Positions 15,001-18,000 of a stretch of 64,000 nucleotides of DNA are shown here, piece after piece (the stretch's first letter is position 1; each line of letters starts with the position of its first letter). This stretch comes from Escherichia coli O157:H7 (GTDB taxonomy: Bacteria; Pseudomonadota; Gammaproteobacteria; Enterobacterales; Enterobacteriaceae), in NCBI RefSeq assembly GCF_013167455.1, contig NZ_CP038328.1, one strand, 5' to 3'. Made by a program: the position numbers.

Positions 15001-18000
15001 CTGATCCCACCAGTAGTGATTGTTTTAGTGATGCAGCGTGCCTTCGTGCGCGGCCTGGTCGATAGTGAGAAATAAGATGGCAGGACTGAAATTACAGGCA
15101 GTAACCAAAAGCTGGGATGGCAAAACCCAGGTGATTAAACCGCTGACCCTTGATGTGGCGGATGGCGAATTTATCGTGATGGTCGGGCCGTCAGGCTGCG
15201 GGAAATCGACGCTGCTGCGCATGGTTGCCGGGCTGGAGCGGGTGACGGAAGGCGATATCTGTATCAACGACCAGCGGGTGACCGAAATGGAGCCGAAAGA
15301 TCGCGGGATTGCGATGGTGTTCCAGAACTACGCGCTTTATCCGCATATGAGTGTTGAAGAAAACATGGCGTGGGGGCTGAAAATTCGCGGCATGGGCAAG
15401 CAGCAAATTGCCGAGCGCGTTAAAGAGGCGGCGCGCATTCTGGAACTGGACGGTCTGCTTAAGCGCCGCCCGCGCGAGCTTTCCGGCGGTCAGCGTCAGC
15501 GTGTGGCGATGGGCCGGGCGATTGTGCGCGATCCGGCGGTGTTCCTGTTTGATGAGCCACTCTCTAACCTCGATGCCAAGCTGCGCGTACAGATGCGTCT
15601 TGAACTGCAACAGCTGCACCGTCGCCTGAAAACGACTTCACTCTACGTTACTCACGATCAGGTTGAGGCGATGACCCTCGCCCAGCGAGTAATGGTGATG
15701 AACGGCGGCGTTGCCGAACAGATTGGCACACCAGTTGAAGTCTACGAAAAGCCCGCCAGCCTGTTTGTGGCGAGTTTTATTGGCAGCCCGGCGATGAATC
15801 TGCTGACAGGCCGCGTGAATAACGAAGGCACGCACTTCGAGCTGGACGGCGGCATTGCGCTGCCGCTAAACGGTGGCTACCGTCAGTATGCAGGGCGTAA
15901 AATGACTCTCGGCATTCGCCCGGAACATATCGCGCTAAGCTCGCAGGCAGAAGGCGGCGTGCCGCTGGTGATGGACACGCTGGAGATCCTCGGCGCAGAT
16001 AACCTGGCGCACGGACGCTGGGGCGAACAGAAGCTGGTGGTACGGCTGGCGCATCAGGAGCGCCCGACGGCAGGCAGCACGCTGTGGCTGCATCTGCCGG
16101 AAAATCAGCTACATCTTTTTGATGGTGAAACAGGACAACGAGTATGAGTAACTGGCCTTATCCCCGCATCGTCGCCCACCGTGGCGGCGGTAAACTGGCC
16201 CCGGAAAACACCCTGGCGGCAATCGACGTCGGGGCAAAATACGGTCATAAGATGATCGAATTTGACGCGAAGTTGTCGAAAGATGGCGAAATCTTCCTGC
16301 TCCATGACGACAATCTCGAACGTACCAGCAACGGCTGGGGCGTCGCGGGTGAACTGAACTGGCAGGATTTACTACGTGTGGATGCAGGCAGTTGGTACGG
16401 CAAAGCGTTTAAAGGTGAGCCGCTGCCGTTGCTTTCGCAGGTGGCGGAACGCTGTCGCGAACATGGGATGATGGCGAATATCGAAATCAAACCCACCACT
16501 GGCACTGGGCCATTAACGGGCAAAATGGTGGCGCTGGCGGCACGCGAGCTGTGGGCCGGTATGACGCCGCCGCTACTGTCATCGTTTGAGATTGATGCTT
16601 TAGAAGCCGCACAACAGGCAGTACCAGAACTGCCGCGCGGTTTGTTGCTGGATGAGTGGCGCGACGACTGGCGAGAACTGACCGCGCGGCTGGGCTGCGT
16701 CTCTATTCATCTCAATCATAAGTTGCTCGATAAAGCGCGAGTGATGCAGTTGAAAGACGCCGGATTACGGATTCTGGTTTATACCGTCAATAAACCCCAG
16801 CGCGCGGCAGAGTTGCTGCGCTGGGGCGTGGATTGCATCTGTACCGATGCGATTGATGTGATTGGTCCGAACTTTACGGCCCAATAGTTTTCAACGGTAT
16901 ATCAGGCTGCGGCGTGCCGGGCTGATTCAGCATGTCGCCGTTTCTCCTCTCCGGCAACATATGCTGCTGATTCAACGAACTATCCGGATTACGGTTGCTG
17001 TTTAACATCCCGCCATTGGTGTTGGGCAGCATTTGCTGCCGGGCGGGATTTCGCTCCCCCGGCTGTGACTGCAACACCCGCTGAGAATTATTGTTTATCT
17101 GGTTTTCTAAATGCTGTTGTTGCAACTGAGTTTGCGTTTTCAGTTGCTGATTCAGCATCCCTTTTTGCTGGATTTGCTGCGTTTGCATCTGGGTTTGCAT
17201 CCGCTGCTGACTGGGGATCTGATACCCCGGCTGGTTAGGGTTGTTCAGAGTATTAATGGGCTGTGCAAAGCCGACAAACGGCAGGAGTGCCGTAAGAATC
17301 AGAAGTCGTTTCATCGCGTATCCTCCTCTGAAGATATTCTTTAAGTTTACTCCTTTCCTGCAATCATCAGGATTAATTCAGAGTTATATACCAGGCTTAG
17401 CTGGGGTTGCCCCTTAATCTCTGGAGAATAACGATGATAAAACCGACGTTTTTACGCCGGGTGGCCATTGCTGCTCTGTTCACAGGAAGTTGTTTTAGTA
17501 CGGTAGCCGCGCCACCTGCGCCGTCTCCTGTTTCTTACGGCGTGGAGGAAGATGTCTTTCATCCGGTACGCGCGAAACAGGGGATGGTGGCATCTGTAGA
17601 TGCTACTGCCACTCAGGTGGGGGTGGATATCCTCAAGGAGGGCGGGAATGCCGTTGATGCCGCCGTGGCTGTGGGCTACGCGCTGGCGGTAACGCATCCG
17701 CAGGCAGGGAATCTGGGCGGTGGTGGTTTTATGCTGATCCGCTCGAAAAATGGCAATACCACCGCTATCGATTTCCGCGAAATGGCACCCGCCAAAGCGA
17801 CCCGCGATATGTTCCTTGATGACCAGGGCAACCCGGACAGCAAAAAATCACTCACTTCGCATCTGGCTTCCGGCACGCCCGGTACGGTCGCTGGTTTCTC
17901 GCTGGCGTTGGATAAATACGGCACAATGCCGTTGAACAAAGTGGTGCAGCCAGCGTTTAAACTGGCACGCGATGGTTTTATCGTTAACGACGAGCTGGCT

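Follow-up and report, generated by a model that had tools for sequence, protein, structure and literature searches.

The locus lies in a 64,000-nt stretch of Escherichia coli O157:H7 DNA (contig NZ_CP038328.1), hereafter the window, and comprises the minus-strand gene yhhA and its convergent neighbor ugpQ:

16874..17314, minus strand: yhhA coding sequence, DUF2756 family (ORF list, Pfam, NCBIfam, RefSeq and codon-position substitutions)
16144..16887, plus strand: ugpQ, which encodes a glycerophosphodiester phosphodiesterase and closes the ugp operon; convergent neighbor of yhhA (ORF and annotation)
16874..16887, no strand assigned: coding ends of yhhA and ugpQ, overlapping convergently by 14 bp (ORF coordinates)

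The yhhA ORF extends from an ATG start through 146 codons to a TAA stop, and RefSeq labels it 'yhhA: DUF2756 family protein'. Pfam PF10956 (DUF2756) matches residues 1-105 (E=1e-60, 202.9 bits against a cut-off of 21), and NCBIfam NF007675 (PRK10350), an equivalog model, matches residues 1-146 (264.6 bits against a cut-off of 136); both scores are well past the curated cut-offs. The protein carries the hallmarks of the family, namely an N-terminal signal peptide followed by NPSQQRMQ and then a Gln-rich stretch that ends with QRVLQSQPG, and this NPSQQRMQ/QRVLQSQPG core is retained in distant DUF2756 members of 87-110 aa. Compared with the rest of the DUF2756/PRK10350 family, YhhA is a full-length member with the same ggt-yhhA-ugpQ synteny as in other Enterobacteriaceae, and nothing material sets the window's copy apart. 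The window agrees with O157:H7, and its allele encodes G133 where most E. coli have S133. The ORF is yhhA, a previously annotated gene, and the original prediction was correct in its observation but described something ordinary and already known. Taken as one claim, the identity, architecture and regulation of yhhA given here, from our own results or from the literature, are in our judgment likely to be right.

Gln accounts for 19.9% of the 146 residues of YhhA, followed by Asn (12.3%), Leu (11.6%) and Pro (10.3%). The typical Gln frequency in E. coli is 4.4%; against this background, the binomial probability of at least 29 Gln residues is 1e-11. YhhA has the highest Gln fraction among the 82 window ORFs of at least 100 aa, and residues 21-100 contain 36 Gln and Asn. 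The Gln-rich, low-complexity character originally attributed to the protein is borne out by these values, and the Q/N/T-rich peptide quoted as its example corresponds to residues 40-67. The accompanying description of the gene as repetitive DNA was overstated: short words do recur above the level of codon shuffles, but there is no tandem array. Tandem Repeats Finder (TRF) reported one array of 9 nt x 2.6, with a score of 32, and the array below, both under the usual default score threshold of 50:

17177..17201, minus strand: micro-tandem repeat of 12 nt x 2.1, encoding MQTQ-MQTQ (TRF score 43; direct-repeat family D2)

Repeated 8- to 12-mers exceeded codon shuffles with P of about 0.004-0.02, and yhhA ranked second or third for repeated words among 145 equal-sized chunks of the window. 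A comparison of repeat length across strains had been proposed, and gene length showed almost no variation: of 60 complete genomes sampled evenly, 59 have a yhhA of exactly 441 bp. E. coli variants of other lengths (96-165 aa) are rare and form near-singleton clusters, with in-frame indels mostly within the Gln-rich part. A variable tandem repeat or contingency locus was rejected on the TRF scores (43 or less), the k-mer statistics and the near-invariant length. As for the low-complexity repeat proposed at the protein level, the compositional bias stands, but YhhA is not a mere compositional repeat because single residues are conserved across genera; the Gln-rich 'repeat' is better described as a compositionally biased yet position-conserved protein segment. 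Two plus-strand ORFs, 17065-17238 and 17111-17344, were dismissed as artefacts of CAG/CTG complementarity.

Of 5426 complete E. coli genomes, 5424 carry yhhA. Further homologues occur in Kosakonia, Buttiauxella, Yokenella and Phytobacter, and yhhA is a core chromosomal gene of Enterobacteriaceae. The family as a whole is small, DUF2756 comprising just 79 clusters at 50% identity among 1.84 billion representatives. Substitutions between E. coli and Salmonella number 39/25/73 at codon positions 1/2/3, which fits this reading frame, and 39 columns are invariant in a genus-level alignment of 19 homologues. Read from these alignments, the codon-position pattern, together with residues invariant across genera, shows the protein itself to be under purifying selection. 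A phage or plasmid source for the gene was rejected, neither phage nor genuine plasmid copies having been found: searches of phage sequences yielded no matches, searches of PHROGs with YhhA yielded nothing, and three 'plasmid' matches were records of 4.8-4.9 Mb that are presumably mislabelled chromosomes. A short DUF2756 homologue gave weak PHROGs matches to Rz-like spanins (E=4e-4), which are probably compositional.

The following elements were distinguished within the protein:

17264..17314, minus strand: signal peptide, residues 1-17, with predicted cleavage before Q18 (read from sequence)
17204..17263, minus strand: conserved segment rich in Asn and Pro at the N-terminus of the mature protein, residues 18-37 (most conserved segment, identity 0.87)
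17066..17215, minus strand: Gln-rich predicted single alpha-helix, residues 34-83, a hotspot for rare in-frame indels (AlphaFold2)
16970..17038, minus strand: tail repeat unit 1, residues 93-115 (self-alignment; pLDDT below 50)
16901..16969, minus strand: tail repeat unit 2, residues 116-138 (self-alignment; M119 and L120 invariant)
16877..16900, minus strand: conserved C-terminal motif IPLKTIGP, residues 139-146 (homologue alignment)

The N-terminus has an n-region with K2 and R3, a hydrophobic core, and then G15-F16-A17|Q18-P19 with small residues at -3 and -1; A17, Q18 and P19 are invariant in the 19 homologues, and the protein contains no Cys, hence no lipobox. These classical Sec-type features agree with the export signal originally claimed. 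YhhA is thus predicted to be Sec-exported with cleavage before Q18 and to be soluble and periplasmic, and envelope-enriched proteomes also point to a periplasmic location. The predicted mature protein has 129 aa, a mass of 14.7 kDa, a pI of 10.4, a GRAVY of -1.40 and 6.2% Gly, and is Cys-free. An AlphaFold2 model built on the 19-sequence alignment placed a single helix at residues 34-83 (block-mean pLDDT 75-86), with low to moderate confidence over residues 18-37, pLDDT below 50 over the rest and an overall mean of 60, i.e. only moderate confidence. YhhA is accordingly modelled as largely disordered outside the helix. Mean column identity among the 19 homologues is 0.87 in the N-terminal segment and 0.77 in the helix. 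The helix displayed neither an amphipathic moment (hydrophobic moment at 100 degrees, z = -0.09 against shuffles) nor a heptad register (best a+d occupancy 5/11 hydrophobic), and a coiled coil or amphipathic helix was rejected for lack of periodicity. A profile search of PDB sequences with YhhA returned no match at E up to 1. With a single helix and disorder, matches from a fold search would carry no meaning for this protein. Aligned with each other, the two tail units score 42 where shuffles average 22 (P about 0.002), and they share the pattern QQ(H)MLPxxxNGxMLN; at the DNA level they correspond to repeat family D1, with a spacing of 72 nt. Kosakonia YhhA has three such units, and the IPLKTIGP motif is kept in nearly all Enterobacteriaceae homologues.

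The export signal bears on a second-hand claim, made in 10.1101/364117, of YhhA as a 'validated effector', secreted by the type III system of attaching/effacing E. coli. On this reading its S/TQ and QS/T clusters would mimic substrates of host ATM-family kinases. YhhA does have seven S/TQ and four QS/T motifs, but with 20% Gln a protein should contain S/TQ motifs by chance, the N-terminus is predicted to be a classical cleavable Sec signal peptide and not a type III signal, and a gene found in nearly all E. coli, K-12 laboratory strains included, and in other, non-pathogenic genera such as the four named above does not track LEE-type systems. We regard this role as extremely improbable.

Upstream of yhhA, the spacer shared with the divergent gene ggt contains three conserved elements:

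17322..17327, minus strand: Shine-Dalgarno sequence AGGAGG, 7 nt 5' of the ATG (read from sequence; GGAGG conserved in alignment)
17341..17349, minus strand: conserved TAAACTTAA, candidate σS-type extended -10 element (cross-genus alignment)
17381..17399, no strand assigned: second conserved block of the ggt-yhhA spacer, TAAGCCTGGT..A.AACTC on the minus strand (invariant positions in the spacer alignment)

The first eight bases of TAAACTTAA, TAAACTTA, are invariant in four genera, and the whole element resembles the σS consensus, which is TCTATACTTAA. The block at 17381..17399 may be a ggt promoter or a regulator site. A sigma-70 promoter scan at yhhA returned no sites, and no Rfam families occur in or near the gene, the sole match in 14000-24000 being RyhB at 21674. 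Genomic SELEX with RNAP-σ38 located a peak in the ggt/yhhA spacer (PMC5493296). In O157 Sakai, yhhA rises 2.5-fold at the stationary transition and clusters with rpoS (PMC2241611); an inhibitor of LolCDE raises it 5.6- to 9.9-fold (PMC5105897), and it has been described as a hub gene up-regulated under multiple stresses (PMC9501238). Proteomic studies have detected the protein (PMC4265081, PMC9731836, PMC9927464), and the one on STEC lists it among periplasmic and outer-membrane proteins, along with some ribosomal ones (PMC9731836). The original concern that the gene might not be expressed is answered by this literature, in which yhhA is transcribed and its protein detected (PMC2241611, PMC5105897, PMC4265081, PMC9731836). 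We propose that σS-RNA polymerase transcribes yhhA from the ggt-yhhA spacer in stationary phase and under envelope and multiple stresses.

The shared spacer also raises the possibility that YhhA works with the periplasmic gamma-glutamyltransferase encoded by ggt, as its partner, its regulator or a Gln-rich nitrogen reserve. Escherichia, Salmonella, Buttiauxella and Kosakonia all keep the divergent gene order with a short common spacer, the spacer contains the conserved blocks, and both proteins would reside in the periplasm. Synteny in close relatives is nevertheless weak evidence; in Erwinia psidii an effector/chaperone pair lies between ggt and yhhA, distant DUF2756 members are located away from ggt (adjoining asd/yhhN, or within a phage-like cluster), and ggt is far more widespread than the 79 clusters of DUF2756. 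A functional link to ggt therefore seems to us unlikely.

At the opposite end of yhhA, the 14-bp opposite-strand overlap that had been reported was confirmed, with ugpQ ending at 16887 and yhhA at 16874. ugpQ is listed under the match in all 59 sampled E. coli genomes with full-length yhhA. The overlap measures 4 bp in Salmonella and Kosakonia and is replaced in Buttiauxella and Erwinia by a spacer of 91-92 bp with its own hairpins; it is not conserved between genera. The 14-bp overlap would represent a lineage-specific loss of the intergenic spacer, and would put the likely terminator of each gene inside the other, so that the transcripts overlap. Two candidate terminators fit this arrangement:

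16787..16826, minus strand: candidate intrinsic terminator of yhhA, within the ugpQ coding sequence, a hairpin at 16795-16826 followed by TTTATTGA (folding energy)
17111..17167, plus strand: candidate ugp read-through terminator, antisense within yhhA codons 53-68, a hairpin followed by CCCTTTTTG (folding and terminator scan)

The first has a dG of -21.4 to -24.5 kcal/mol (z = -3.5 against shuffles) and starts 47 nt past the yhhA stop, and its palindrome is present in Salmonella too; we infer that the hairpin at 16795-16826 terminates yhhA. The second has a dG of -22.4 kcal/mol (z = -3.9) and was found by the terminator scan as well. Its structure is not conserved in Salmonella, Buttiauxella or Kosakonia, making a selected ugp terminator at this site doubtful, and the hairpin may be a by-product of CAG/CTG complementarity.

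A published set of 165 convergent excludons of E. coli MG1655 includes the yhhA-ugpQ pair, with transcript overlap by RNA-seq in at least 50% of 58 MG1655 transcriptomes (PMC12288877). Like other convergent excludons, it has overlapping coding ends and candidate terminators embedded in the neighboring genes; it differs in that its overlap does not persist beyond the Escherichia/Salmonella/Kosakonia group. The overlap is a typical case of an already catalogued phenomenon. The locus could on this basis be mainly regulatory: through convergent overlapping transcription, σS-driven yhhA and the ugp operon of the Pho regulon would exclude each other's expression, and the protein would be secondary. 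The published excludon, the overlapping ends and the stable hairpins with T-tracts inside the partner genes speak for such a function. We consider it very unlikely given the purifying selection on the protein sequence, the absence of the overlap from Buttiauxella and Erwinia, and the lack of conservation of the hairpin inside yhhA.

The function of YhhA had been called unknown, and this still holds, the searchable literature containing no experiment that assigns one and no deletion phenotype. The most likely role, which we put forward tentatively, is that of a non-enzymatic, hydrophilic, stress-phase periplasmic protein. Such a protein would act through its helix and short linear motifs; it could be a protectant of the hydrophilin type, or else bind or scaffold some conserved component of the envelope. 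Its positional conservation exceeds the need of a purely entropic protectant, which favors a specific partner. The hydrophilin criteria ascribed to Garay-Arroyo et al. 2000 are reportedly a Gly content above 6% and a hydrophilicity index above 1; mature YhhA lies within them, marginally so for Gly (6.2%), with its GRAVY of -1.40. Relative to hydrophilins and other σS-dependent small hydrophilic stress proteins of E. coli (such as YciG, YjbJ, the periplasmic OsmY, and YbgS), YhhA is likewise small and very hydrophilic, with Gly above 6%, and likewise largely disordered by prediction and induced by stationary phase and stress (PMC2241611, PMC9501238). It differs from them in being rich in Gln and Asn instead of Gly and charged residues, in being exported and in its strongly position-conserved motifs, and it has no sequence homology to any of them. 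Its composition is unusual among bacterial exported proteins.

This composition invites comparison with the Q/N-rich prion-like domains and polyQ-adjacent helices of eukaryotes. The 36 Gln and Asn within 80 residues exceed the census criterion of 30 per 80 for Q/N-rich domains, most of the protein is predicted to lack order, and yhhA, like the curli genes, is σS-controlled. A prion-like domain that forms amyloid or condensates and assembles with itself in the periplasm, for instance as part of curli or matrix formation, is nonetheless improbable: conservation is positional and not merely compositional, the Gln-rich part is predicted to be helical, Pro is frequent (10%), and no mention of yhhA was found in the prion-like and amyloid literature. 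Set beside the eukaryotic domains and helices, YhhA has a similar Q/N density and a Gln-rich segment predicted to be helical, and differs in being bacterial, secreted, conserved residue by residue and Pro-rich. An extended form of the idea, in which YhhA self-associates as a polar zipper, condensate or amyloid-like assembly at a level controlled by collision of its transcription with that of the phosphate-starvation ugp operon, is similarly a long shot. If true, it would alter the periplasm of stationary-phase cells in its material state or seed fibres of the matrix, and would supply a bacterial, extracytoplasmic counterpart to eukaryotic Q/N-rich assemblies.

The conserved Met residues suggest instead a disordered periplasmic metal binder of the SilE/PcoE kind. 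The mature protein has seven Met, of which M43, M53, M103 and M119 are invariant in the 19 homologues, H118 is nearly so, and YhhA resembles that kind in size, predicted disorder and probable periplasmic location. The Met enrichment is not significant, however (P = 0.07), there are just two His and no HxxM or MxxH motif, and no metal-resistance genes surround yhhA in the window or in the relatives compared, leaving metal binding a highly unlikely role.

Preferring a hydrophilic stress-phase protein of the periplasm, we note that yhhA remains an E. coli core gene with a defined family, clear σS/stress regulation and a detectable product. The finding matters little beyond annotation, and the function of YhhA, if found, would inform how the stationary-phase periplasm is protected or organised. 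Two further published observations were judged uninformative in this regard: YhhA has been captured with ppApp (10.1101/2021.12.15.472736), and strain C41(DE3) carries a Pro-to-Leu mutation in yhhA (PMC4632034).

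The gene yhhA lies at 16874..17314 on the minus strand in the ORF listing of the window, with 146 codons and an ATG start, and the peptide quoted in the original prediction is present in its translation. The 901-bp yhhA region is 100% identical to that of E. coli O157:H7 strain PV15-279 and occurs in 5424 of 5426 complete E. coli genomes, chromosomal every time. The matched locus is annotated "yhhA: DUF2756 family protein", between ugpQ and ggt. YhhA matches Pfam PF10956 (DUF2756) over residues 1-105 (E = 1e-60) and NCBIfam equivalog NF007675/PRK10350 with 265 bits (cut-off 136). 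Thus, yhhA is a gene already known and named, and one with no assigned function. The first description of it was accurate and its interpretation essentially right; it concerns an annotated core gene of a defined Pfam/NCBIfam family and a transcriptional overlap that has been catalogued before. The remaining interest is the function of an exported protein unusually rich in Gln and Asn.

YhhA is 19.9% Gln, 12.3% Asn, 11.6% Leu and 10.3% Pro. With 4.4% taken as the usual share of Gln in E. coli, its 29 Gln in 146 residues give a binomial P of 1e-11, and its Gln fraction is the highest among the 82 window ORFs of at least 100 aa. The census of Q/N-rich domains by Michelitsch and Weissman in 2000 reportedly used a threshold of at least 30 Gln plus Asn per 80 residues; with 36 in one such window, YhhA is Q/N-rich in that sense. 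Substitutions between E. coli and Salmonella yhhA number 39/25/73 at codon positions 1/2/3, with a like pattern in other genus pairs, and yhhA is a genuine protein-coding gene. Homologues from different genera, 19 in all, share 39 invariant columns, which include many individual Gln residues, and mean column identity is 0.87 (residues 18-37), 0.77 (38-83), 0.49 (84-92) and 0.61 (93-132). YhhA evolves more quickly than its neighbors: E. coli-Salmonella protein identity is 72%, compared with 86% for UgpQ, 88.5% for GGT and 89% for UgpC. Plus-strand antisense ORFs at 17065-17238 and 17111-17344 were rejected as by-products of CAG/CTG complementarity.

The gene had also been described as repetitive at the DNA level, which holds for short words but not for arrays. 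Short repeated words exceed those of codon shuffles (P 0.004-0.02), and just one or two of 145 equal-sized window chunks contain more of them; TRF returned no true repeat array in yhhA, only 12 nt x 2.1 (MQTQ-MQTQ; 17177-17201, score 43) and 9 nt x 2.6 (score 32). The suggested comparison of repeat length across strains was carried out on 60 complete genomes taken evenly down the match ranking, and the yhhA span was exactly 441 bp in 59. A large protein collection includes a few rare E. coli forms 96-165 aa long, all with in-frame duplications or deletions, chiefly in residues 38-86, whose end points sit at repeated (M/K)QTQ and QQ words (direct-repeat families D1, spaced 72 nt, and D2, the MQTQ micro-repeat). 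Slippage between short repeats is their likely cause, so the Gln-rich segment is mutable in principle and of a single length in practice. The one damaged locus in the sample, in E. coli strain A16 from an otter (L007, 2501-3317), carries a deletion across the convergent yhhA/ugpQ junction that turns both genes into pseudogenes; as ugpE is frameshifted there too, the assembly itself may be at fault.

The 14-bp overlap with ugpQ is exactly as first reported. The features of this junction are:
16144..16887, plus strand: ugpQ, ending 14 bp inside the yhhA 3' end
16795-16826, minus strand: hairpin followed by TTTATTGA, inside ugpQ, starting 47 nt past the yhhA stop
17111-17158, plus strand: hairpin followed by CCCTTTTTG, within yhhA (dG -22.4, z = -3.9)
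The minus-strand hairpin (dG -21 to -24.5 kcal/mol, z = -3.5) is the best candidate yhhA terminator. It is a palindrome with a perfect 9-bp stem, CCCCAGCGC...GCGCTGGGG, made of ugpQ codons for PQR and RWG. Salmonella keeps this palindrome and Kosakonia part of it; either strand of it folds well, with a 3' T-tract on the yhhA strand only. The plus-strand hairpin could be a stop for ugp read-through inside yhhA, and was not conserved in the other genera searched. The pair is one of 165 convergent excludons of MG1655 in an RNA-seq survey (PMC12288877). It is very unlikely that the locus is purely a regulatory excludon, since selection acts on the YhhA protein and the overlap varies between genera, measuring 14 bp in E. 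coli and 4 bp in Salmonella and Kosakonia, and being replaced in Buttiauxella and Erwinia by a 91-92-bp spacer, each with its own hairpins.

Upstream of yhhA, two elements were located:
7 nt upstream of the ATG, minus strand: AGGAGG, as read from the sequence
17341-17349, minus strand: TAAACTTAA, identical across four genera in its first eight bases
TAAACTTAA resembles the consensus for an extended -10 element of σS. In line with this, SELEX with RNAP-σ38 gave a peak within the ggt/yhhA spacer (PMC5493296). Expression of yhhA rises 2.5-fold on entry to stationary phase in O157 Sakai, within the rpoS expression cluster (PMC2241611), and 5.6- to 9.9-fold under inhibition of lipoprotein transport (PMC5105897); yhhA is a hub gene up-regulated in several stresses (PMC9501238) and responds mildly to acid (PMC2270276, PMC7824302). 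The protein has been found in Salmonella and E. coli proteomes, one STEC analysis listing it next to periplasmic and outer-membrane proteins (PMC4265081, PMC9731836, PMC9927464). The original prediction held that interest would drop if yhhA were not expressed; this published transcription and protein detection show that it is. A second invariant block in the spacer, TAAGCCTGGT..A.AACTC (17381-17399, minus strand), is a candidate for the ggt promoter or for a regulator site that is shared.

Residues 1-17 read as a classical Sec signal, positions -3 and -1 being occupied by small residues, and A17, Q18 and P19 are invariant in the 19 homologues; YhhA lacks Cys and so is no lipoprotein. Once mature, it is predicted to have 129 aa (14.7 kDa, pI 10.4, GRAVY -1.40, one aromatic residue). 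From the 19-sequence alignment, AlphaFold2 gave a single long helix at residues 34-83 (block-mean pLDDT 75-86) and pLDDT < 50 everywhere past residue 87. The helix has neither a significant hydrophobic moment nor a heptad register, and so is no canonical coiled coil. The C-terminal end is a conserved IPLKTIGP motif, preceded by a repeat present in three copies in the Kosakonia homologue:
YhhA residues 93-115 and 116-138: two imperfect copies of a 23-residue tail unit, QQ(H)MLPxxxNGxMLN (self-alignment P ~0.002)
yhhA is conserved, translated and σS/stress-induced, and its product carries a Sec signal. Mature YhhA would be a soluble periplasmic, non-enzymatic, largely disordered polypeptide acting through its long polar helix and short conserved linear motifs. 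We tentatively favor hydrophilin-like protection or scaffolding in the stationary-phase or stressed envelope as a possible role; strong positional conservation suggests a specific partner. That same conservation, and the helix as modeled, do not fit a prion-like or amyloid assembly, which is unlikely despite a suitable composition. A SilE/PcoE-like metal binder is highly improbable, as YhhA has no HxxM or MxxH motifs and its Met enrichment is not significant. Finally, a type III effector or ATM-substrate mimic, a reading given second-hand in 10.1101/364117, is extremely unlikely: the Sec signal contradicts an effector, and yhhA occurs in K-12 and non-pathogenic genera.

Among 1.84 billion representative proteins, a DUF2756 profile matched just 79 clusters (E up to 0.001), the named members belonging to the Enterobacteriaceae (Escherichia, Salmonella, Citrobacter, Enterobacter, Yokenella, Buttiauxella, Kosakonia, Phytobacter and Dryocola), with Erwinia psidii besides. 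No YhhA-related sequence was found among solved structures. Distant members (87-110 aa) retain the signal peptide, NPSQQRMQ, the Gln-rich segment and QRVLQSQPG and have no MLN/MLP tail. The order with ggt divergent and ugpQ convergent is kept in Salmonella, Kosakonia and Buttiauxella, and with an insertion in E. psidii. A functional link to GGT, which this synteny of ggt and yhhA would suggest, is improbable, since the synteny is broken in Erwinia and in the distant members. The E. psidii insertion (L004, 2680-3750) comprises a HopF/AvrPphF-family type III effector gene and its CesT-type chaperone, with ggt on one side and the DUF2756 gene on the other. Thus the spacer carrying the yhhA promoter in E. 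coli has served as an insertion site in Erwinia. On a 109-kb JGI metagenome contig (L005, 4001-4264), an 87-aa homologue, P0170, is encoded on the opposite strand between large terminase and capsid/portal genes, in the manner of a phage moron. Its PHROG matches, to Rz-like spanins, are weak (E=4e-4), and it has no relatives in the GenBank phage collection.

Elsewhere in the window, the RyhB small RNA lies at 21674-21738 (plus strand), a few kb past ggt (Rfam RF00057, 83 bits; gathering score 55). A perfect 29-nt tandem duplication at 28867-28924 (TRF score 116) lies within ORF 28079-29053 (plus strand), an accessory RecQ-family helicase gene adjoining a dprA-like gene and found in 1650 of 5426 genomes. 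The stretch is 29 nt shorter in other E. coli, O55:H7 and O157:H16 among them, and the gene is labelled "frameshifted; internal stop" in O157:H7 PV15-279, so the duplication looks like the pseudogenising lesion.
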